Source: Raja brachyura (lineage: Eukaryota). From it: a DNA stretch of 64,000 nt. The notes under the pieces are model-generated. The model ran no database searches. It was not told the origin of the DNA and was given only the letters and a program-made list of their open reading frames with translations. Shown one piece after another: positions 22,601 to 56,300 of this stretch. The stretch spans positions 48,484,001 through 48,548,000 of the forward strand of contig OY740782.1 of assembly GCA_963514005.1 (NCBI GenBank), given 5' to 3'. Within the stretch, counting starts at the first letter, position 1. Every line of letters starts with the position of its first letter. The translations under genes and the position numbers were made by a program.

Positions 22601-25600
22601 TACTTCCTGGTGGATGGATGTTCAACAGGTAGTCAATTGATACTGACGGGTATGTACACCACCTCACTTCCTGAAATCAATAACTAGCTCCTTTGTCTTT
22701 CTAATATTGTAGGGGATATTGTTGTCTTAATGCCATGTTACTCTCTCTTTCTGTATTGCATTTTGTCATTGTTTGAGATCCGGCCTTCTATAGTGGCGCC
22801 AGCTGCAAACTGGTAAATGTAGTTAGAACAGAATTTGGCTGCATTGTTGTCAGTGTACAGGGGAGTAAAGGGCTGAGAATGCATCCTGCCAGAGCACCGC
22901 CGTTGCTCATTTAACCAAAGGTTAAATTCCCCATTCTCACATGTAGTCCATTCTTTTTTATCATGACTCCTTCTTAGTTTTACCTCAGTACTGCATTCTA
23001 TCTTGATTCTTCAATTAAAAACACAGAAACTATTAGGACCAGGACATTTGACCCTTTGAACCTATTCTGCCATTCAAAATGATTGTGATTTATCTTAATC
23101 TTAATCCCTAATCTTAGACTGTGACCTTTAGTCCTGAACACTCTGACTGTGAGGAAGATCCTTGTTTCATCAAATTTGTTCAGTCATATTGCATGAAAAC
23201 AGACCATTCAGCCTGACATACTCATCCGACCAAGCTGCCCCACCTACAGTAGTCCAACCTGCTTGTGTTGTGCTTCAACTACCTTCTCTGGTAGCTCATT
23301 CCATATACCCACACCCTCTGTGTGAAGAGGTTGCCCCTTAGATTCCTTTCAAAACTTTCCCCTCTCACCTTTAAACCTAAATCCTTTGGTTCTTGATTCC
23401 CCTACTCTGGGTAAAAAACTCAATTTATCTCCTTGACCTATTCCCCTCATACACCTCATCCACCTGTACTCCAAGGAATAAAGTCCCAGCCTGCTGGAAT
23501 TTTGTAGGATTTGATGACATTTGCCTCTCAGTTTTCTGAACTCCCTCCATAGCAACACACCCTTCTTCAGATAAGAATCCTAAGACTGTACACGGCATTC
23601 AAGGTCTTGTCTCACTGAGCCAAGTACAATTATCTAATTATGTCGTAATGGGAAAGTAACAGATGGATAATATAGGAGTAACAGACTTTAATTCTAATCT
23701 CCTCAAGAGGATATCATAGTGCACCGTACCTCTATTTTTGATGGCCCATAGGTTTTCACTGGAGGAGGCTGACAATTCTCAGAAATGACAAAGAGCTGGC
23801 CAGAGATTACAGCTGAGCTCACATTGTTAAAGATGACGACTTCAACTGTAAATTCTCCTTCACTATAAACAAAAACAATAATAGAAGCATTAATTTCAAC
23901 CACAAAGCATCCATTTCTGCAATGAAGCTCGCACATGACAGATTATTTGAAAAGGCAGCTTTTCAGCATATGATGTGAATACTAGATTATTCTGTATTAG
24001 AGAGGTACAAGAATCAGAATTATAAATATTAGACCCCTTGATTTGATTTCTACTTATACAAGAGGTACAATGTTAATAATGCATATTATATGACTTTCTC
24101 TGGAACCACAGCTGAAACTCACAACAGCTTTGGGCTTCTAAATGTTATTTAGTTTAGCGCATTTTCAGAACTGCGTGATCAGCAGTCAAGACATTGAAAT
24201 GAAAGAAACTACAATGAAATCTATGAAATTTAACAGATTAGTTTTCACCAAAACACAAGGAGTGGAGGATGGTTACACTTGAATATTATGATTCAATCTC
24301 AGTCCCCAAGAGCACCTGGTCATGGAGCTTCAAAGGTCTTGGAATGGTCTACTATACCTGATTTGTGTTGGGATTAATCAGTTTCTCTGTTCCAAGTCCC
24401 TGAATCATGTGTTTTAAGCCACTGTCATTAAATTAGAATATTTCCTGATGCTGTACATGCCAGACCTCAACAAAGTGAACAGTCATTGCTGCTCTGTAAT
24501 TATGTCGTCCTAATTTCAAGAGAGAGTTAGATTTAGCTCTTGGGGCTAAAGGAATCAAGGGATATGGGGAAAAGCAGGAACAGGATACTGATTTTACTTC
24601 GGAGTCACGTGAGTGACTACGTGAAGAAGACCCGCCAGGCGCATGTTCGGCATTACGTCGACGCATGTGGCACCGACAGGGTGGGGAGCGCAGCTCCCAT
24701 CAGTGGTAAGTTTAACCCGCAGGTAAGTCAGTGTTGAACTTCTTGCGAGTGTTTTTTAAACTCTTTAAGTCTGCAGAGCCAGCTAGAGTGTATATGTATT
24801 GTGGAAAAAGGCTGATTTAAAAGCTGGTTCCCGCTATTTACCGTTATTTAGATCGGGTTAGGAGATAACGACTGCGCTAAATGCCGGCTCCAAATACCCA
24901 CAATGGTAAAATAAAGTCTGCTCTGTGTATATGTTACCAGATGCACTTTTCCTTTATGGAAATGTATATAACCCTGAGTGATACTGAGGTTAATAATAAT
25001 ATTCTGCAAGCAGAATGTGCCTCTCAGAATTATAATTTTAAAGGTATATGATTTATGCACAAATACAAAACAGTAAAGAAAGTAACTCTCCTCCAAGGGA
25101 GGACAAGAATGAGGGGAAGGCTGGAAATGGAGAAAATGCTCCACACTTGACTTAGTCAAGGGTTCTAAGACTTGACTTAGTCAAGGGTATGTCTTCCTGT
25201 AAGGCAAGCTCCAAAGGAGTTTCTATAGGCTGAGTATGGTGCCTATGAAAATGGAATTCTGATTCTCCAGTACCTTGGTTAGGTCTGGATGAGGTCACTA
25301 GAGCAAGATAAAATGCTCAAAATTCTAATCAGTCAAGGGTTTTAAAGACCCATGAGATTCTATGGCATGGAGTTTCCATACACTAAGTATGGTGCCTATA
25401 AAGAATGAGAATCTCATTCACCAGTGCCTTGTATAGGTCTGGATGAAGTCCTTAGAGCAAGATAAAATGCTCAAAACTCTAAACAATTAAGGGTTTTAAG
25501 ACCCATGAGATTCTAAGGCAGGCTCCGAAGGAGTTTCCATACAATGGTGCCTATGAAGAATGAGAATCTCATTCACCAGTGCCTTGCATAGGTCTGGATG

Positions 25601-28600
25601 AAGTCTCCCTAGAGCAAGACTCGGGAGTACCAGGGCAGGATGAAACTGACCCTGAAGCTGGTGTCCCTACTTATGTGTATACGCCAGAGCACAATAGAAA
25701 TATTCCGGGTGTTCCCGATGTAGCACCAAGTTTTGCTATATCGGTATGGACTGGTGAGGCTATGGATGAACCTGGCGGCCAACATTATTTGGTTTCTCAC
25801 CTACTCCAAGATACTGTTATGACTGAAACAGTAAATAATATATAAAAATATATAAAACACCCGTCTATTGTGCTTTGCTCAGGGTGCCAACAGTAACTCA
25901 GTAATTAGGCACCCATGAGTCAATGATGCGAGGACAGGAAATGTGTTCCAGTATGTCCTCTAGCTGATATTCAGTTGGCATCATTGTATTTGGGGAAGAC
26001 ATACATGGGTCGATAATGTCCAATACTTTTAAGACATGCTTGCGTTACTCTGCAATGCATATTCAAACCCAATTGTATGATGCAAATTGCCATTTGGCTA
26101 ACATTATCCCCAAAAAATGCAGGATTATGTGGGCAAGCTATAACCAGATTTATGATTGATGAAAACAAACCCCTATATCAAGAAGAAGGAGATCTTCTGG
26201 TTCATTTACGGAAGTACAGAAACTTAATTCCATTACACATGGAATTTCTGGGGAAACAACCTCTGGTTGGTTAAGATTACAATTGTTTCGTAATTCTGCA
26301 TTCATCTGAGCGGCTTGGTGTTTGAATGTACCAGAAACTCGTCAGGTAGGTATATATCCCAGACACAAATATGGGGGTTGCAGAGTCATTCTAGGACTCA
26401 CAAACTTAAATTTATAGTTCAGTATGAACATTTAAAAAAGACCACTTCAGCATTATAATAAAGTTGTTATCACAAGGCTGCTATGTGGTTATTTTTTAGA
26501 TTTAAAAAAAGATGCCTTATTATTGAGGTACTTCAATTGGATGGGTCAGCTGAAGGAATTACCTAATGGGTTAAATTCAGCCCTCAAATTGCTCACACAA
26601 TTATTGAAACCAGCACTGGTGATAATGAGGGCTCAGAATCACATTGTAATGATTTATCTAGAGGATATGTTAATTGTAAATGGGAGACAGCTGAAGAACT
26701 GAGTTCAGCAACCATAAGCCTATTGAAAGGCTACGGTTCTGTACATCCAAACAACATGGAAGTTACAGGCATCCCAAACAATTGATTATTTGGGGTTTGT
26801 CTTTAATACAGTTGATATGTGAGTAACATTATCAACAAATTAAGGTTGGGGATGTTACAAATGCTTGTATTTGTCTTGGGGAAAAAACATTATCCCACCA
26901 TCAAAGAAGTAGCTACGGTTACTGGTAAAGTGATAGCAGCATTCATGCTGTCAAATTGGGACCTCTGCATGATCAAAGTCTGCAAAGACCAGAGTATAAG
27001 AGTAAAAAGCGTGCAGGTCATTGATTAGGTCCATGCAGTTACCAACTAAAGGTTGAGTTGAATTCAATGATGGATTCTCAATGTTGCACAAGTTACTAGA
27101 AGTAAACATATGCTTGTTCAGAAGTCTTCAGTGTTATTACAGACTGATGAGAGTGCTCCCGGATGGGGAGCTTAGGACAGCGACACCAGTTGTGGTGGTC
27201 GATGGACTGTCCAAGACGATTAATTCTCCAAATACATGGTTGAATTATTTGGAGTTATTAGGGGCATTTTATGCATTGATAGCTGTTGTTCTACAATAAA
27301 GAACTTACATGTTCAATTACGAGTAGACAATACCAAAACTGTGGGAGAATACAATACTGTGGTAAGACAACAGATCACGAAAATGCAAATTACAATACAG
27401 AATGAATGTTAAAATTCAAAAAGTTTCAAAAAGATTGTCAGACAGTATGTGTACCAAATGTTGATCTGTTGTGTCTGGATTAAATCTCCAGTGGTCTAAA
27501 TGTGTCTCGTGGGAGTCAGCCCCAGGAGCATTAGCGGTGGATGCATTCTCGCTACATTGGGGAAGTATAGTCTTTTATGTTTTCCCAATTTTGTCTGATT
27601 AGACAATGTGTCACCAAAATAGAGCAAGTCTCCGCCGCGGGCATTTGGTGGTTCCAAATTGGTATTGTTCTCGGCCTTTTGGCCAAGATCAAGTGTAGTA
27701 TCTGTTCTTATCAGTTAATATCTGATATGTCCCTTATCTAGGGACCATTACTACACAGCCATTGTTCCCATTGGTGCCCAGAATAATGATTCAGACATTC
27801 ATGACAAATAACAGGTACAGTAATTGTTGGTACATCCAGTAACAGCAGAAGTCATCCATTACATGACCATATTAATTGTTAATCTGCAGGTTCTGATGGA
27901 ATGTTGGATAGGACCATGGATGTCATAACTGCAGCTTGAAGAGATAGCACTAAGAAAAAATATATGTGTCATATAAGGAATGGGAAATCTTCTTGTATAC
28001 AGTCAGATATAGTTTATCATACTGCAAATATATCGGATATATTGGAGTTCCTTGGTATGTTGCACCTGAGTTATAGTACCATGAATGGAGCTAGGAGTGT
28101 TTTGTCCTCCTATTTAGGACTATTTCACAATCGACAACTATCGGCCTCATCTGTTAATATCCCGATTTATGAGAGGAACATTAATAAAATCCTACCAAAC
28201 CCAGACATTCAGAAATCTGGGATGTCGGTATAGTTCTCACATTGCTTTGGCAATGGACTCCAATTACAACCCTATCTTTTCAGAAGTTAATAATTTAAAG
28301 TGATTATGTTCATACCATTAATATCAGCATGAGTACAAACATTACAAATGTTGTGGTTAGATTGTATACAGTTGTCTGTAGATAAAATAACGTTTTATTT
28401 CAATGATCTAAGCAAGCAAAGCAAGCCAAAAAAGGCTGGAACCAATGTAATCTTTAAGACATACGCTGTCAACTAAACATTGTGTGTGGTTAAGCATCTG
28501 AATTAATATATATTGAATTAAGAGTCTCCGAGATTGTGATACACCAATGTTCATTACCCACAAGAAACATATAAAAGTGACAGAACAAACTATTTCTAGA

Positions 28601-31600
28601 TGGATAAACAGGTTCTGGATTAACTGGAGTAGACACTGATGTGTATAAATCTCACTCCACAAGGGCGGTATCAATGTCTGCGGCGAGGGTGCAGGACGTG
28701 CCGCTCGACCAAATTCTGGAGACTGCAGGATGGTCTAAAAAAGAAACTTTCCTAGTTTTATGATAAACCTGTTGTTACAGTGCCAAGGTTGTACATGCTC
28801 TGTTGGGTTCTGTTCAAAATTGTTTGCTTTGTTGCATAACATTTGGTGTTATTTCCCCTGGGATATATAAAATTATTGCATAATTTCAAGCAATATATAT
28901 TATTTACTCATTACTGGGTAAACTGAAGCGGTGTGTCGTATGGAATGATCTACGGCATGAAAATCACAGAGCTTTAAAATCTTCACGTAGTCACTCACAT
29001 GACTTCGAAGTAAAATAGTAAGATTAAACAAGAACTTACCTGTTCGAAGTTTGATCTTTATTTTATGAGGAGTTACGATGAGGGATTATGTGCCCTCCAC
29101 TCCCAACCCTCATAATATAAATGATCATCTGGTAGTTTTAATCTTTGTGAGCCTTACTATCTTACTCCGACTATTGGATCTGTGTTTTTCACGCCGCTGT
29201 TTTGAAGTATGCTGAACATGCGCCTGGCAGGTCTTCTTCACGTAATCCCTCATCGTAACTCCTCATAAAATAAAGATCAAACTTCGAACAGGTAAGTTTT
29301 CATTTAATCTTACTATTTTAGATGATCAGCCATGATCATATTGAATGGCGGTGCTGGCTCGAAGGGCCGAATGGCTTACTCCTGCACCTATTTTTTTTTT
29401 CTGTTTCTTATTAAGATCTTCTTCATACATCAAATAAATAAGCATTTTGAAGGCGAGCTAGATGGGAAGTCATAATCTATGCTAATTGTATATTTGCATG
29501 ATGTCCATTCATGCAGCATCAACAGGAATAACCAGCTGGAGAATGATTGCAAAAACATTATCCCAACCTTTAACAATCTGAGTCAAAGCCAGTCAATTGT
29601 CCAATTGATATAGCGCTGCAAAATACATTTGCCAGTTAAGATATAAAGGTTTATAAATTTGAAAATCACAAGAAGTTACAAAATCATGAGAGGAATAGAT
29701 CGGGTGGTGCACAGTCTCCTGCCCAGAGTGGAGAACAAGATCCATAGGTTTTAAGGTGAAGGGGGAAAGGTTTTATAAGAATCTGAGGGGTAACTTTTTC
29801 ACACAAAGTGTGGTGGGTGTATGGAATGAGCTACCGGAAGAGGTAATTGAGACAGGGACTATCGCAACTATTGTGAAGCAATTAGACAGATACAAAGATA
29901 TGACAGGGTTAGAGGGATATGGGGCAAATGCAGGTGAGTGAAGATGGGACATGTTGGTCGGTGTGGGCAAATTGGGGTGAATGGTCTGTTTCCACACTGT
30001 GTGACTCTAAAGGGCCTATCCCACAGGCGTTTTTTAAGCGACTGCCGGCGACCGTCATAGTCGTAGCAGGTCACCGAAAAACCAGCGACTGGACCCCCCC
30101 TACGGCAATGTCTGTGGCAACCTACCACCTAGTTGATGTCAAGCTACGGAAAACTACCGACAACCGGCGACCCAATCGTCATGACTTAGGACGTCCACCT
30201 ACGACCACATCTACGACAACCTACGACCACACAGGCGACAACCTACGATAACTGAAGTCAACCTACGTCCACCCGCAACAAGCTACGACCCGGTCGGTGA
30301 CAACTGAAGACAATTCAGGCGCCAGTACCTGTCGCCGGAATGACGTAGAATGGAATGGAATGGAATTCACAGAAGTCAGCACCGGCGACAACATTGTACC
30401 TGGCGACAACCTATGATAGCACCTATGTCAGGAGAAGTCAAGCTACGCTCATTGGCGTTAAACCCACTGTTGCCGAAATGTTTTGAAAATGTTGAAAATC
30501 CTGCGGCGACCAGAAAGACGATATGACTCTTTGGGCGACTGAGGAGACTCATGACCATACAGGCGACACCCCGGCGACCATGTGGCAACAGCCTAGTCGC
30601 CTAAAAGATCGCCTAAGTAGACAGGCTCTTAACATTAAATAATTGTCTTCAATGGTAAAAAGTAAAAACTGAACAAAATATTTTTTGACATATTTAACAA
30701 CACTGTGCATTAAGGTTTGTGTTTAGAACATGAACGCACATTAGGATTTTGGCCTAATCTCAGAATCTGCCTACCTATCATAACGGTGATACTCCCTCCT
30801 GCTCCCAGTTCTCACGGTACCATCACCAAAATTCCACAAGTACGAGAGTTTGGTCCCGTAGTTAATGCGTACTTCCACAGCAACACTGGAGTTTAAGAGA
30901 ACTGAGGTAAGATCTTGATTGTTTATTCTAAGTCTGTTTGGTTCAACTGCTTGCTGCAGCTCTATCGGATAGATGTTTGACGTGAATGAACTAATCTGGT
31001 TCGATGCATTCACTATCACGTTGTACCTGCAAAGCAAAAATACCTTCAGTTACATTTAACTAAACACATCCAGTACATCTTCTTGGTGAACATCTTATAT
31101 TTATTTTGTGATAATATGATTTTATTTGTGTAAATTGGTTATAATGTAGCATCCAGAAAGTTATAGGTTTTAGGCTAAAAGGTTTATGGATTGACAGTTT
31201 CTCAAGCTTGGCCCAAAACTGCAGCATTTCATCATCTTTGCTGCCAATTCCACCCCTTTGTTTTGTCTTCACATGGTCCATCACTGATTCACTTGCTCCT
31301 CACCCTCCATTTCATCATATTTGCATGATGTAACAATGTGGTGGATTAATATCTACCTCATGCCTACATATCCCTCTGGCATCTACCTAGATTGTGCTAC
31401 AACTACCTATTTTCATCTCAAGAAGACACCTGATTCATCATCATCTTACCAACCAGTTTATAGGACACTTACAGCAGAAACTCTCATTCGTATAATTGGT
31501 GCCTCCGTTCTTGATTCATCAAATTCACTTTTTATTTTATTGTTTAAACTTGATATAATCCCAAACTTTCCCATCCTTATACCGAATCTCTGTGCCTGTT

Positions 31601-47300: not shown

Positions 47301-50300
47301 CTTAAAGAATTGTTCCTTTTTGACAATTATATTTCAGAATCAAATCTGAATCAAATCTGATTCCAAAAACTGTTTACAAAACGAGTATGCTTTTTCCTAT
47401 CGTTAATGAAGATGCTACAAATAAGCTTAGTTTTATTACTAACCTGACAGTAGCAGCCACAGCACTACGCAGTAGGTTTCTAGCAATGATTATCAGCTCT
47501 GCCCCTAGCATTGCTCCTGGCCAACTTCCTAGTTGAAATATCTTTGCACTTTCCTACTTGCCCCTGAGTTGTGACTTTTGAAGCCTGCAAGTATCCAAAT
47601 ATGTTCCCTGCACCCGCCATCGCTGCCTACTGGAGCACGTGTGAAAGTTTGCCGGACCCCGGTTCCACCAGATTGACACCGATGTGCAGCCGAGCGTGGC
47701 CGATGAAATAAGGGGCTGGAAAGAGGCGCTTTTAAAACATTTATTTATTGCCAGTGCTAGTGTCGAGGTATCGGTTTAAAACAGTATTATTCTGAAATGG
47801 AGGGCAAGGAAAATTACAGAATGGTTGTTCAGAGACTACAGTGCATTGTGACAGCATATGCAAGAAAGGCCTATGACAAAAAGTGTCAAAAATATTATAC
47901 ACCTTGGCCTGAGGCCCCCTAGATTTTGAGGCCTTAGGTTTCAGCCTGCCAAGCCTATAGGTAAATCCGGCACTGCAGCTACACTTACAGCATATACTCA
48001 GCTATTCCTGGATGAATCTGCATCCATCACTTATTATTTTCTTGTCTGCATTCTTCCTATTGCTCAATGTTTTTCTTCTGTTTCTTATTAAATGTGAAAA
48101 TGGTACTTCTGTACCTACTACAATTGGAAGTTGAAATGTTTGTTGTAGTCCCATCACCAAACAGGATAACAGCTTCATCCATGTCGAACGAAATATTCTG
48201 TGAGAAGAGAGTTTAAGTTATTTAAAGAAATATAATGGGAACGTCAAGATTAGAGACTGATGACTATAGAAAGAAAAATAAGTATGAGTGAGGCAAAATT
48301 CAGCTGAAGATTAAAAAACGTGGCCAAATTGAAAATATCTACCATGCATCCATTATCAGAATGGGAGGCAGAAGAAACAAAAATAGAGGAACAAAGGCAA
48401 GTTTGAAAAGAAAACAGAATGCAGCAGATGACTGGGAAAAAAAGAAAGTACAGGGGTAACTGACAATGTCCAAGGAAAAGAAGAAAGAACGGTTAGGGAA
48501 TGAGGAGATAATGAGGCAGATAAACAGGAATAAATGGGAAGGATACAGAAACAAATGGTAGGTGGTGAAGAAAGACAAAGCATGAAGAGGCAGAAATACT
48601 TTCTGATCACAAATCTCTTTCCGCTTTGGTTTAGATTCACTTTCTTTGTGATATGGGCTTAATTTTCAAGATAACGTACCAATTTTATTTATCTTCCTTT
48701 CTTGGATCTGCCCATCTGCTTCTCAGCAGATAGACCAGCCAAAAATAATTCATTGCAAATCCTCAGTTATTGAGACTATACTTCCTCCCACCCTGCCTGC
48801 CCTATTAAAGGACTCCTAGTTTCTCCATCTCTACTGCTTTTACTCCAATCATGTAACTATTCCTTCTTACTGAACCATGGCTCTCCCTCAACCATAGTGG
48901 ACAGAGCCTATATATTTCAACATCTTCCCTCTCACACCCTCACTTGGACAAAGGAAATAATTGCACAAGGCCTACTTACCATGCCCTTGTAAATTAATAT
49001 GTCTATTTTTTCCCCCATTTTCTTACCGTGAGAACTTAAGGGTTACGCAAATAGCTTACTATAGTTGGCAAAATGTGATACTTTAACTCCACCTTTTACG
49101 TTTATAACATATGGAGCTGCCATCTCTCTCGGGTTATGCTGGAAACTTCAATGTTTAGCGACTATTGTTCTTTAAACAAGCTAGGAGAAATTTAATTTTA
49201 ATTTTCTGATTGCCACAAATCAGTTATTGGATGACACAGATGTCTGTTCTTTTCCAACTTATCTGAGGAGATTGTGCACTGTACACATGCCGCCGATTAC
49301 AAGGGTGGGGTGAAGTGTGTTATATTGTTACAATTGAAACAATAGAGACTGGAAGAGCGAGGTTATAAGATAAAACCACAATTTGCTCTCAATGAATAGG
49401 GCTAGAACCTGCAATTTTAATGCACCTTTCATCATTCATGTAACAAATATTGAAATTCATTACCATAGCTTATATTTCTTGATAACTGATCACAACCAAT
49501 CCAGGCTTATTTACATTTTAGGATGGGAAATATCATAAACAACGGTAACAATTGTAATCTTCACAGTCCTGAATAAAAATCGTCATTAATCTTTGCAATA
49601 GGAATGATATTTTCTTTTATGGGTTTCAGTTGTATTTCTATAGAAACATATAAGATTATTAAGGGTTTGGACACGCTAGAGGCAGGAAACATGTTCAGTC
49701 AAGTCAAGTCAAACAAACTTTATTGTCATTTAGAAATACATTGATATATGCAGTTCCAAACGAAATTCCGTTGCATTTGGCTCCTTGTGCAACACGATAA
49801 ATTAACAGAAGGATAGGCATGGATAAAATGGATAAAAAGGATAAAAGGATAAATAGACAATGGTGGCAGCCCATTTCCTTTCGGAGTCACGTGATTGACT
49901 TCGTGAAGAACCCGCCAGCACGCACGCGCGACATATCGTCGCTACGCATTTGCAGTCGACGGCTGGATGTGGAGCGTGGCTCACCACCAGCCCTATCATA
50001 AGGGCCACTCAGGTAAGTACAGGCAACCTTGAGCTGGTTGTCCCTGTTGTTTGAATATTTTCTCTCCAACAGGGACATGGATAAGAGGAGTACGGGCCGC
50101 AGGACGTCCGAAAGGAGTCGCTGGCCGCCAATCCCGGAGCTCTCTTCAACGACAGCAACCGCTAGACGGGCCGGGAAAAAGGCGTGAAAATCGGGGAACC
50201 CTGTGTTCACAGGACCCGAACCACCGACACAGCTGTGCACAAGCGGGGTTCCCGCAGAGCAGGAAGTCGGTACGGCGCCGGAGCAGGTAGACCCTGACTC

Positions 50301-53300
50301 CATTTCATTATCGCCAACAGGATCGTTGGCTGATGTGAGCAAACGGGTTTCACGTGCTGCTGCACAGCCCTTCTCCCTGAGCCCTCGTGGAAGAGCCAGG
50401 GATAGAGTCGACAACCTAGCCCTTTTCGGGCAGAGGTTTCACCAGAGGCCGCTAGATTGCGGACTGGTGGATTAGCAAGACCCGAGTCCACTGGCAGACC
50501 AGGGAGGGCCAGTGTAGACTCACCACCTAGTTGAACCAGGAGGAGTCACGCAGATGGAGTCTCGCCATGGTCACCGCATACCCCGTTGGCGGCAGGACGG
50601 GACCGTACGCCGTCTGGGTCCAGGAAAAGGACAGTCGGCAAGCCCGCACGGATGTCGGGTCACCACGCTGCGGCGTTGGGTGCCGACTTCACACCGCATA
50701 TGCCCTTAGTGGCAGCCGGGCCTAGCTCAGCCAAAAGGAGGCGTATGAGCAGATCCGCGCGGGAGTCGTTCAGTTTCGCTGAGGCGGCTGGCAGCGACTT
50801 TTCGTCACGGCACCGAGATTACCTCGACGAGGTACGGGCCGATGATAGGAGCCTCAGAAGTTCCTTCGGGCATGAGGACTCTGACCGCCCATTCACGCAC
50901 GATGAAGGGCGCATTGATCGGATGGAGAGGATAATGGAACAAATCCTGCAGCAAAATCAACGGCTGGAAACATTCAGTTCCAGGGGACTCATGGACATAT
51001 CCCCATCATCAATGGATAGCATGAGGCAGCCAGAAGAAGAGGATATCTTGGTACACGTACCAGTAGCACCTGAGGTCCCTCAGGAAGAACTCCTGGACGT
51101 GGCAGCCAAGTTTGCGTTACCCGAATCATCGGGACAACCCCTCAATACCAAACTGGCCGCTACCATTGATTTCCTCACCAACCATCAGCTACAGGAGCAG
51201 GTCCTCGCGGAGGCCATGAACAGACACAACGCACCGAGTAATTGTAACTCGCTCAATGTGCCTATTGTGAACATGCCTATTTGGGGCAATATTAGCCCAG
51301 GCATTAGAGCACAGGAAGTGAAGTTACAAAGAATCCTGAAACTGCTCACATCTGGGATTACCGCTTTTGCGAGGTCGGTGGACGGTGTGGACATGAACAC
51401 CGAACAAGATGATGCTCTGGCACTGCTATGCAACACGCAATATGAGATAAATGCGTTTCGGAAAAGCATCATCAAGCCTACATTAAACCCCAAATTTGTG
51501 GGGCTATGCAGATCACCCCCAACACCACCACCCAGACAGCTATTCGGAGAAGACCTCCCGAAGCAGGTCAAGGATTTAGATGACCATGCCAAGACAGTGG
51601 GTCTTATGAGGTCACACACCTTGACCAGACAAACGGCCAGGAAAACATCATATTTCAGGCCACGAGGTCAAACCGAAAGGCCAGCAAGGACCTATGTTCC
51701 GGCGCCTCCACAATACCAACAGTCTCAACAGCCCAGGCCTTTTTTTTAGGGCAAGGCCCACAGCGGCCAGCATGGAAGATGCGGTTTCCGCATCACCAGC
51801 ACAACCCAGCACCTCCACGTCCCACCAAACATGTCAGGGACCGCCGATAACCATGAAGGTAAGGCGGTCTGGATTTCATGCACTTGCATGTCTAACCTCA
51901 CATGTTGGGGGTAGACTACGTTTTTTTAAGGAGGCATGGGAAACCATCACCTCAGATGAGTTTATCTTACAAAGTATTCAAGGCCATGAGATTGAGTTCA
52001 TAAATGGTCAAATTCCTCCACCTCAGCATATGCCGAATCGCAAATTTGCACTTTCCAGGAAGGAAACAGCAGTAGGCTATGCTGAAATCTTGAGACTACA
52101 AGGGAAAGGCGTGATAGAAAGAACTATACACGAACCAATTGAATTTTTATCTAACATATTCACAAAAACCAAGAAAGATGGTGGATGTTGGGTCATTATA
52201 GATCTAACCCATTTGAATACTTTTGTAAAATATACCCATTTCAAAATGGACACGTTCGAAACAGCCAAATCTTTGATTTCTGAGGGCTACTTCATGGCAT
52301 GCATTGATTTAAAAGATGCATACTATTCAGTATCCATTCAGAAACATCACAGGAAGTTCTTGAAGTTTACCTGGATGGGTCAACTTTGGCAATACAAAGC
52401 TTTGCCCAATGGGCTTGCCACAGCCCCCAGATTGTTTACTAAATTACTCAAGCCAGTGCTAGCAACACTGAGGAGGCAAAATCATATGGTTATGGCTTAC
52501 CTGGATGATATCCTAATCATTGGGAATACACTGGAATCAGCAAAATTGGCAGTTTCAGCCACTGTGGAAATATTTCAAAAAATGGGATTTATTATCCATC
52601 CAGATAAATCAAAGTTCTGTCCTTCACAGATCATGGACTATCTGGGATTCACGGTGGATTCCAATCGCATGATTGCCACCATACCAACTAACAAAGTTGT
52701 GGATATCATTCAAGCATGTAAGAATCTGGTCTGCGCCAGTATACCATCAATCAGACAAACTGCTAAGGTGATTGGGAAAATCGAAGCAGTTTTTCCAGCT
52801 GCTCAATTCGGACCTTTACATTATCAAAATTTGCAAAGATCCAAGATTTCAGCGTTAAAATTGAATGCTGGACATTTTGATAGACCTATGCAGCTGCCAC
52901 TTAAGGCAAAAATTGAGTTACAATGGTGGATTGATAATATCCATAACTCATTTAAACCCATCATTGTGCCTCGTCCGGTGGTATACTTACAAACAGACGC
53001 AAGCTCCCATTGCTGGGGAGCTACGGACAACTACACTAGTTGCGGAGGCAGATGGGACACCCTTGAATCTACCCTGTTGTTATCACAAGGGATAAATTAT
53101 TTGGAGATGCTAGGAGCATTCCACGGACTTAGAGCTTATTGTTCAAACTTTACTGACACTCATGTCCGTCTCCAAATAGACAATACCACTGCGGTGGCAT
53201 ATCTAAATCATATGGGCGGTACCAGGTCAATTTCGTGTGATGAATTGGCAAATACAATTTGGCTCTGGTGCATACAACGGAATATTTGGATTTCAGCTAC

Positions 53301-56300
53301 CTATTTACCAGGTAAGCTCAATACAGTGGCGGACACCAGGTCACGGAAATTTAATGACAACATCGAGTGGATGTTAAATCCCCAAATATTCGCCAAAATT
53401 ACAGCCAAATTTGGTAAACCGGATATTGACCTTTTTGCGTCACGGTTGAACCATCAGGTACCAACATACGTATCATGGGAACCAGATCCTGGGGCAATGG
53501 CGATGGACGCCTTCTCGCCAGACTGGAGGAAATGGTTTTTCTATGCATTTCCTCCATTTTGCCTCATCAGTCGGGTATTGCGGAAAATCCAGCTAGATGC
53601 TGCTAAAGGCATTCTTGTCATACCCGACTGGCCTACTCAGCCATGGTATCCGGTGGTCCTTGGTATGATCAGTCAACCATGGGTCCTCTTAAAGGGTTGC
53701 CCACAATTGGTGATGAACCCTGTTACAGGGGAACAACATCCCTGCCATAGTCGCTTGAAATTATTGGCTTGCAGGTTCTGAACAGACCATTACTGCAGTA
53801 TGGTCTCTCATCAAGGACAATGGATACAATTGGAGCATCATGCAGGGAGTCCACAAGACGGCAATATCTAACGCATATCAGGAAATGGGAAACCTACTGC
53901 GGCCGCTTGAACATTGCATATGACTCCGTTTCAATCACAGATGTGCTGGAATTCCTTGCGGGGTTGCATCATGACGAACACCTCAGCTACAGTGCCATCA
54001 ACAGCGCCAGGAGTGCGCTATCATTCTACCTCAATATTGAGGTAGGATCCAATAAACTGGTGTCCAAACTTATGCGGGGAATATTTAATTCCAATTCGCC
54101 AAGACCCCGTTACAACGTCACCTGGGACATTGGGAAAGTACTAACCCAACTCAGGACGTGGTCGCCCATGGCTGGGCTTGAATTGGACAAACTCACCCTG
54201 AAGCTGGTGATGTTATTGGCACTTACTTCAGCATAAAGGGTACAGACACTTCATAAGGTCAAGATTGACATAATGATCTCTACCCCAGAGAAAGTAATCT
54301 TCTTTGTTGATGAATTACTTAAGCAGCATAGACCTGGATACACAGGGCTGCAGCTGGTGTTTCCAGCATACCCCGCTGATGCTAGGCTATGCTTAGCCAC
54401 CTATATCTGCCACTATATAAGAGTGACACGGAAATTAAGGGGAATGATGGCTCAGGATCGTCTTGAATGAAGCAGGTATTGACACTAATGTCTTTAAATC
54501 CCATTCCACCAGGGCTGCATTAACGTCGGCGGCAAAGGTCATGGAAGTGCCCATGGACTATATTCTTGCCACAGCGGGATGGGCCAGTGAAGCCACCTTT
54601 CAACGGTTTTATAACAAACCTGTTACCGCTCCTGTAATGTTTGCAGAGGCCGTGCTGAATGTGGGTCGAGAACATACAGCTACTCCCCAGTGAGGGTTTT
54701 TTTCTTTTTGTTGTTATTAATAAATATTATTATTTTTCAGTACAAGCAGTCTGAAAATTTGATTACTCCTATTCATCCTTACAGTGGCGTGTGTGACAGC
54801 ATGGACGTTGTCCAGGGCATGAAATCACAGAGCTTTGAAGTCTTCACGAAGTCACTCACGTGACTCCGAAATGAAATAGTAAGATTAAATGAGAACTTAC
54901 CAGTTTGAAGTTTGATCTTTATTTTATGAGGAGTTGCGATGAGGGATTTTGTGCCCTCTGCTCCCAACCCTCGATCACAAAGTCAACTGGTAATTAGAGT
55001 CTCTTCCTTACTATAACAAGTCATTTCTTTGTTTGTTGGTTCTGTGATTCCACACCGCTGCTTTGAAGAATGTCGCGCATGCGTGCTGGTCGGTTCTTCA
55101 CGAAATCCCTCATCGCAACTCCTCATAAAATAAAGATCAAACTTCAAACTGGTAAGTTCTTGTTTAATCTTACTATTACATGGCATTCAGGAGTCTGATG
55201 GCTCGTGGGAAGAAGCTGATGCAGAACCTTGATGTTCTGCTCCTTAAGGGCCTGTCCCACCAGCACGCAACTATATGCGATGAACGCGATCAAACCGGCA
55301 GCGGGGGCCGCGCGGAGGTCGGGTGATCCCCTGTACAGGTCCGGTCCCACCAGCATGCGCCTGCATGCGGCAAGCGCAACTTAACCGGCAGTAGAGGCCG
55401 CGCGGAGGTTGGGTGAGTGGTGCAACGCGGCGCAAAGCAAGGCGAACTTGAAGCAAGTCCAAGGTAAGTTCGCCAGGACTTAGAGGGGCACACAGAGAGG
55501 GGCACCGAGACACACACACATACAGGGCCACGGAGCCACACACATAGAGGGTCACGGAGGCACTTACGAATAGTTTCATGGAGGCACGATGTCCAGGCGG
55601 TATGTAAATGTCGCGGCGACTGCGAGCCGACAAACCGTTGCCGCGCGGGATTTTTGGACATTGTCAGTTTTTCGGAGCCCCGCGCGGCATCGGGACGAAC
55701 TCGGGACGAACTCCGCACAATTCCGCACGGCTCCCGCGATCGAAGTGGGACCGGCCCCGCGACGCCGGACGGCTCAAGCGACCACGTTAGGTCGCGCTAA
55801 TCGCATCGAGTTGCATGCTGGTGGGACAGGCCCTTTATGCTGCGATATCTTTTTCCCAAGGGCAGCAGAGTGAACAGTCCGTGATGGAGATGTGTGGGGT
55901 CTTTTATAATACTGCTGGCCTTAGACACGCAACGTTTGGTCGCAATATCCCCGATTGAGGGGAGAGAGGTCCCGATGATTTTTTCCGCTGTCCTCACCAC
56001 TCTCCGCACAGACTTCCAGTCGGAGGCTCTACAGTCCCCAAACCAGACAGAGATACAGCTGGTCAGAATGCTCTCTATGGTGCCCCTGTAGAAAGTAGTG
56101 AGGATGGGACTTGTTGTTGATGTTGGGGGAGTCCAGAACCAGGGCCACAGTTTAAGAATAAGGTGTAAGCCATTTTGAACGGAGATGAGGAAACACTCCT
56201 GATGTCCTGATGTTGGGGGAGTCCAGAACCAGGGGACACAGTTTAAGAATAAGGGGTAAGCCATTTTGAACAGAGATGAGGAAACACTTTTTCACACAGA

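Follow-up and report, generated by a model that had tools for sequence, protein, structure and literature searches.

Pol as a candidate alternative intron in a DIRS1-like retrotransposon of the skate Raja brachyura

We analysed 64,000 nucleotides (nt) of the Raja brachyura genome (GenBank assembly GCA_963514005.1, contig OY740782.1, positions 48,484,001 to 48,548,000 of the forward strand), hereafter the window, whose own numbering is used throughout. The window carries, on the + strand, a whole DIRS1-like retrotransposon with gag, pol and tyrosine recombinase (YR) genes (49873..55177). Its pol region lies between two splice-like sites, D2 and A3. The exact loss of the D2-A3 interval from genomic copies of independent lineages, with compatible reading frames and with conservation of the sites, is seen directly in the DNA. 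On these grounds, splicing from D2 to A3 very probably occurs, and there is good reason to take it as the normal route to YR. The scheme as a whole, in which one RNA is spliced from D2 to A3 to encode Gag-YR and the downstream frames are entered from gag by a frameshift, is in our judgment somewhat better than an even proposition.

A sequence-only reading of this DNA had proposed that the element makes separate gag, pol and recombinase mRNAs from five splice-like sites. All five lie exactly where that reading put them (a slash marks the boundary): D1 (CAG/GTAAGT, GT at 50013); A1 (...CTCCAACAG/, 50072), ahead of the gag ATG at 50077; A2 (CCTTTTTTTTAG/, 51749), ahead of an ATG at 51772 (AGCATGG); D2 (AAG/GTAAGG, 51859); and A3 (TTGCAG/GTTCTG, 53774). 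The 29-codon leader MEDAV..ITMK and the YR frame VLNRPLL are readable as described, and a second, degenerate DIRS element of another family (24591..29318, +) has its D1-, A1-, D2- and A3-like sites at 24723, 24776, 26346 and 27889, as proposed. By a crude weight matrix, D1 and D2 rank first and second among the element's 241 GT sites, and A1, A2 and A3 rank 4th, 10th and 17th among its 331 AG sites. The existence of the sites is one matter and their use another: the excision of pol between D2 and A3 stands up well, whereas the likelier products are not those of three mRNAs but Gag and Gag-Pol from unspliced RNA and Gag-YR from spliced RNA.

Loss of the D2-A3 interval and conservation of its ends

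The D2-A3 interval (51859..53774, +) is 1,916 nt long, begins with GT and ends with AG, and contains the reverse transcriptase (RT), RNase H and most of the methyltransferase (MT). It is in phase 0 at both ends, in the pol frame at D2 and in the YR frame at A3. Since the spliced RNA of a retroelement may be reverse-transcribed and inserted in the genome, the 2.7-Gb genome was searched with junction probes. A 21-nt D2^A3 probe gave 86 exact matches (control, 0), and a wider probe gave 91 (control, 0), these being exact losses of the interval in related lineages; intact D2 motifs number 15,048 (control, 59). All 86 junction copies were retrieved. They lie at many different loci and belong to one young sister lineage, lineage B, which is 74-82% alike to the window's family; this tells against reading the 86 as more than about one event. 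YR is open for at least 300 codons past the junction in 8 of the 86.

Two other lineages have lost the same interval. A degenerate junction probe for lineages other than B gave eight matches against five for its control, four of the eight being DIRS copies and the other four chance. L354 is a complete copy of another family, family E, with both ends, the D1-A1 interval, the T-run at A2 and an open YR, and lacks D2-A3 only; in trees of both flanks it clusters with the full-length L303 and its family. L355 and L356 represent a third lineage of about 230 copies, whose full-length member has GAG/GTAAGG and TGCAG/GTTCTG. L356 is 98.8% identical to that member upstream of the junction, and both copies are about 97% identical to it downstream. 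A single clade for all 11 deleted copies tested was rejected (approximately unbiased test, p-AU 6e-43 and 5e-45). The breakpoints of the family-E and third-lineage deletions have only AG/GT in common. A rough chance expectation for the D2-A3 pair, derived from 5 large deletions in 39 copies, is 0.04 copies genome-wide, even assuming 4-nt homology for every large deletion; the element contains 21 AGGT sites in all. From these precise intron-less copies in three lineages, together with conservation of the sites beyond coding need, we infer that the deletions arose by splicing followed by reverse transcription in trans.

That conservation was examined in a sample of 40 elements, taken in order along one contig, and 20 recombinase matches; 21 lineage representatives were chosen (pol identity 41-93%, median 58%). 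The acceptor A3 (53770..53774, +) reads TGCAG in 21 of 21 representatives, a count weakened by their having been drawn from copies with a recognisable A3. The site overlaps Cys-Arg codons; by comparison, a fixed third base occurs at only 8 of 103 conserved two-fold columns, and only 2 of 14 other columns keep a single Arg codon class. The possibility that A3 is conserved only through Cys-Arg-Phe coding therefore fits poorly with the codon controls. D2 reads xAG/GTR with G at +5 in all 16 aligned representatives, while the residues encoded there vary (K/E/Q, R/G/S). In these respects D2-A3 resembles a U2-type intron: the GT..AG consensus is kept beyond coding need, with a weak donor in two lineages, and the interval is removed exactly in DNA copies of three lineages, to which the window's own family does not belong. 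Within that family, 39 sister copies at about 96% identity retain the sites, which says little because the family is young; none of these copies, chosen for an intact D2, has a large deletion at a predicted site.

The recombinase frame itself points in the same direction. It closes 15-111 nt upstream of A3, without a Met in most copies, and in L278, L313, L320 and L321 the first Met is residue 87-104, past the SAM domain. A YR without an early Met would need its N terminus from upstream, and the D2-A3 splice would supply one in frame. In protein searches, long YR proteins were mostly gene-model fusions with pol or overlap-frame extensions, and two skate gene models contained no Gag-YR. Separately, the YR protein P0052 starts M-L-Q-V, like the frame of CTGCAG/GT, a hint that A3 extends to other animals. 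In the models P0012 (Amphiura) and P0017 (Pocillopora) gag is followed directly by YR, pol being absent, but the joins lie at other points and the models are weak leads only. A metagenome scan gave four short contigs, which were left aside.

Other rearranged copies were encountered among these lineages. In L113, of lineage B, gag, bridge and YR form a single 734-codon frame, and the pol-less branch of the same lineage has also expanded repeats in the 5' region of gag. A non-autonomous family (L279, L304, L307, and L308) keeps D2 and has other internal deletions, one of which joins the MT region to YR at a CTGCAG/G distinct from A3.

The heptamer upstream of D2

The gag open reading frame (ORF; 50077..51850, +), which has 590 codons in intact sisters, spans A2 and terminates at 51848..51850, 8 nt upstream of D2; the stop codon holds this position in 20 of 21 heptamer-bearing copies. 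The sequence previously read as acceptor A2 is the heptamer T TTT TTA followed by G (51742..51749, +), encoding F-L-G in the gag frame and F-F-R in the -1 frame. Of 30 copies having a D2, 21 contain TTTTTTA, and in every one of these a -1 slip there enters the pol frame, which in the window is open for 669 codons from 51772 (51772..53781, +). The first T of the heptamer is invariant and is the third base of a Pro, Ser, Ala or Thr codon. The site is thus of the X XXY YYZ type and phased into an open -1 frame. From the heptamer to D2 runs a pol-frame bridge that overlaps the gag C terminus (39 codons in the window, 51742..51858, +; 36-39 in general). All 15 lineage copies are free of stop codons here, compared with 27 of 90 control windows; the copies being related, the comparison overstates the odds.

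Nine D2-bearing copies have no heptamer: four of a deletion family, L293, one four-T copy and three of another clade. The run is absent in seven copies of four lineages in which gag and pol share one frame (a single 1028-codon ORF in L321), and one single-frame lineage retains the peptide P-F-L-G with other codons. Lineage B (L200-L219, L070-L139) has lost two T, which places gag and bridge in a single frame. At three synonymous T positions, T-to-C changes are common in that lineage, whereas none occurs in the 15 lineage copies. The tract has 8 T in the window copy and 6 T in most of the 39 sisters, so that it looks more acceptor-like in the window copy.

The bridge contains two ATG codons, a non-conserved one at 51772 and a better conserved one at 51853. 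The T-run is conserved while the 51772 ATG is not: it is an N-TG derived from a gag Trp codon and reads TTG, CTG or GTG elsewhere. Of 21 copies, only 6, all near the window's family, have their first AUG downstream of A2 in the pol frame; in the other 15 it is out of frame. As a conserved start, the 51772 ATG was ruled out on these two counts. The 29-residue YR leader that the sequence-only reading obtained from a D1-A2 splice loses its support, its ATG being a by-product of the gag Trp codon.

HIV-1 uses U UUU UUA for its gag-pol -1 frameshift. Heptamer and phase are identical in the DIRS element, and a G-rich hairpin follows 5-6 nt downstream in many DIRS lineages; a difference is that the DIRS stimulatory structure is without statistical support, and another is that the frameshift would be combined with a splice that chooses the enzyme. 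To judge by this pattern, A2 is more likely an HIV-type -1 frameshift site than an acceptor, and we consider it likely, at a lower level of confidence than the splice, that a -1 slip at U UUU UUA gives entry to the pol frame.

Counter-evidence, the 5' donor motif and other explanations

Several further observations weigh against D2-A3 splicing behind a frameshift. In lineage B, A3 reads TGAAG in 15 of 20 full-length copies, and the resulting 7-nt homology with D2 makes the lineage-B event ambiguous. The junction-probe search of the genome found no D2^A3 copy of the window's own family, and the degenerate probe found none in the abundant lineages with a CAG/AT acceptor, so that every deletion seen has GT on both sides. 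A junction probe for two lineages with the weak donor GAG/GTACAW gave no match. Five of the 21 representatives are unaligned at D2, two of them with that weak donor, and the place of A3 in 63 copies holds TGCAG in 49, TGAAG in 1, a different junction in 4, nothing similar in 8 and no YR in 1. A retro-copied junction means that the splice occurred, not that it is needed. As for the heptamer, the hairpin 3' of it is visible by eye in many copies but reaches a z below -2 in only 2 of 15; the G after it is nearly invariant, so that A2 still reads as an acceptor; and 11 of 16 representatives have a strong-context ATG (51853) 2 nt past the gag stop. The contigs from four runs, of which one was only presumed to be RNA, give no evidence either way: the predicted joints are absent among the 15 of 45 joints listed and, for the presumed-RNA run alone, among the 15 of 18 listed.

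Of 53 copies having a left end, 51 have a GGTRAG donor motif between about +100 and +150, and to judge by this retention D1 (50013..50018, +) is under constraint. This candidate donor is probably a functional U1 site, acting in splicing of the 5' untranslated region (5'-UTR) or in protection from early polyadenylation. D1 and A1 would delimit a putative 60-nt 5'-UTR intron with a small hairpin (50013..50072, +); the interval spans only about 49-61 nt across the window's clade, and one family has 37 nt. In three copies, from some lineages, the gag ATG is reached without a clear acceptor after D1. No genomic copy was found with D1^A1 or D1^A2 junction probes for the window's family. Probes joining D1 to A1, A2 or A3 in family E revealed no junction, their 12 matches being 11 unspliced donor variants and 1 non-DIRS sequence. 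In all four pol-less copies in which D1 was read, D1-A1 is retained unspliced; L082 lost A1 by a separate deletion. Inside the interval, a hairpin with a near-palindromic loop (50026-50042) is common to several lineages. A role of this hairpin in dimerisation or packaging is conceivable and would account for the absence of retro-copies of D1-spliced RNA. A further donor motif, some 20 nt before D1, is present in many lineages (L312, L314-L321, L270-L276).

The sequence-only reading made the D1-A2 splice the source of pol. In the form considered here, this splice yields a gag-less mRNA on which pol starts at the NTG of 51772 or the ATG/ACG of 51853, and an added D2-A3 splice yields a recombinase with a short leader. 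We find this unlikely. It can call on D1, the strongest donor, which is retained also in copies that lack an A1 ahead of the gag ATG, on TTTTTTAG/G as a usable acceptor and on the ATG at 51853 in 11 of 16 representatives. ATG, TTG, CTG and GTG, all seen at the 51772 position, can start translation, and D1-spliced RNA may escape packaging, in which case the absence of DNA copies proves little. Against it, the D1 probes described above found no junction copy, and the T-run behaves like a -1 frameshift signal, unchanged at its synonymous positions except where two T have been lost. Past A2, the first AUG is mostly out of frame, as noted above; a pyrimidine occupies -3 of the NTG in 6 of 15 copies, and L286 has no NTG. 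Finally, no A2-like site exists where gag and pol form one ORF.

A second explanation, which we hold to be improbable, attributes the deleted copies to microhomology-guided template switching or to rare cryptic splicing, takes the motifs for coding by-products and has YR made otherwise, be it from an internal start, from a promoter inside the element or by frameshifting where pol ends. It would account for AG/GT at both ends of all deletions seen (possibly 7 nt in one lineage) and for the lack of deletions in CAG/AT lineages, and the YR of the window's family does have a Met, at position 15. It does not explain why two lineages with only 4 nt of homology broke at the same two bases, and the codon controls at A3 and the several YRs without an early Met also speak against it. 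The end of pol has no conserved slippery site: a slippery heptamer is found at the pol/YR overlap in 3 of 21 representatives only, and a frameshift there was rejected for that reason.

Least probable is a variant in which D2-A3 splicing does occur but ribosomes terminate at the gag stop and reinitiate at the 51853 ATG, giving free Pol and a free YR with a two-residue leader: 11 of 16 representatives carry TAA-CC-ATG-(G/A), frequently with a perfect Kozak context, but the largest intact family has ACG there and others have ACA, TTG, AGG, GCG or TCT, and the open 39-codon bridge and the fixed heptamer would be left unexplained.

The element, its proposed expression and its relatives

The element has the features of a DIRS1-like retrotransposon. 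Its ATT...ATT ends (NTT termini) are common to sister copies. Self-comparison places the left inverted terminal repeat (ITR) at 49873..49934 and the right ITR with its extension at 55070..55177 (both +), and the left and right internal complementary regions (ICRs; 54841..54953, +) overlap on the 3 bp AAT at 54875-54877, the circular junction. Pfam identifies the RT (RVT_1, 2e-21), a Dam-like MT (1e-3, below the cut-off) and, in the YR of the window copy, an integrase SAM domain (Phage_int_SAM_4); PF00589 is above the cut-off in relatives, and RNase H is recognised from motifs only. The YR exon (53775..54693, +) has 327 codons in intact sisters. In the window copy both gag and YR are broken, gag ending after 36 codons and YR after 153, and 65 nt present in sister copies are absent at 54446. 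The family counts thousands of copies (3171 candidates, the best 40 at 96-100% identity).

Exact matches to the 20-nt DIRS terminal motif number 38,612 in the host genome, a very high DIRS load, and nested insertions are found among the copies (L105, L118, L120, and L128). The window also contains short elements resembling miniature inverted-repeat transposable elements, with inverted ends of about 50 nt (295-966 and 55246-55835), the latter lying 70 nt past the right end of the DIRS element. Within the MT region of the second DIRS element, upstream of its A3, lies a 5' fragment of U2 snRNA (27663-27750; Rfam match 27663-27842). A 15-nt U2 motif is found in 10 of 20 copies of that second family, indicating that the fragment was amplified along with the element.

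In the scheme that we favor, a single transcript would have two fates, being either kept whole or spliced once, from D2, just past the gag stop, to A3, at the end of pol. The splice would remove the whole RT-RNase H-MT region and join YR in frame. Translation of either downstream frame would start in gag and pass over from there, likely through -1 slippage on the U UUU UUA heptamer. Unspliced RNA, the genome, would yield Gag and Gag-Pol, and spliced RNA would yield Gag and Gag-YR by the same slip. Where gag and pol form one ORF no slip would be needed, and the splice would give Gag-YR directly. Fusion to Gag may bring YR into the particle, and the position of the gag stop, 8 nt before the junction, may spare the spliced RNA from nonsense-mediated decay. 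Since spliced RNA retains both ends and the ICRs, it could be copied in trans, which would explain the pol-less families; truncated DIRS-1 cDNA of Dictyostelium is reported to be copied in trans (PMC7192593). The broadest form of the proposal is that DIRS1 pol is an alternative intron, that frameshift and splice together choose between Gag-RT and Gag-recombinase, and that spliced RNA is packaged and copied, repeatedly founding pol-less gag-YR families, a plan that may extend across animal DIRS1 elements. On this we are evenly divided.

In the literature searched we found no description, for DIRS elements, of a splice that removes pol, of pol-less copies so made or of YR expression by splicing; key subscription papers and Repbase may already note it. 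Some YR elements reportedly contain spliceosomal introns according to Goodwin and Poulter 2004, a point that may affect how new the scheme is. On present evidence, this is a known element class with an expression plan that is likely undescribed.

The DIRS1-like elements of Piednoel 2011 (PMC3266345) have the same gag, RT-RNase H-MT and YR ORFs, ITRs, ICRs overlapping on a 3-bp junction and ATT termini; the paper nowhere contains "splic" or "intron", and the window element differs in having only a short pol/YR overlap. By analogy, the closest counterpart is the SD' RNA of murine leukemia virus (MLV; P50/SDARE). There, an alternative gag donor produces a spliced RNA encoding a fusion of Gag to integrase, and this RNA undergoes packaging, reverse transcription and integration; P50 is an accessory protein made of part of Gag and the last 116 integrase residues only (PMC10496198). 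In the DIRS element, by contrast, the splice would be required for the entire recombinase, whose frame would likely be entered through a frameshift. The spliced subgenomic Gag RNA of Ty1/Copia elements is similar in that alternative splicing sets the protein balance and U1 at the donor also blocks early termination; there the splice yields Gag only, while the DIRS splice would swap Pol for YR behind Gag (Oberlin 2017, PMC5580714). For the YR of Ngaro, Poulter and Butler 2015 proposed a frameshift in a short -1 overlap with the end of pol (quoted in PMC13003380). This is the only proposal for YR expression in such elements that our literature searches found. Both systems share a short -1 overlap of this kind, but the DIRS overlap has an acceptor and no conserved slippery site.

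Fish, amphibians, reptiles and many invertebrates have abundant DIRS elements, and the scheme bears on how the third ORF of these elements, the recombinase, is translated and delivered to the cDNA. If the scheme is true, one junction and one slippery heptamer would form a precise answer as to YR expression, a class of pol-less copies would be accounted for, and YR and Pol proteins would prove to be mis-annotated at their N termini. A splice scheme also fits the inference of Abascal 2015 (PMC4495291) that a splice acceptor stood ahead of gag in the DIRS sequence at the time of its co-option into TMPO and ZNF451. That the recombinase gene is often without a start codon of its own would be explained if the protein is made by a splice, likely as a fusion to the structural protein Gag.

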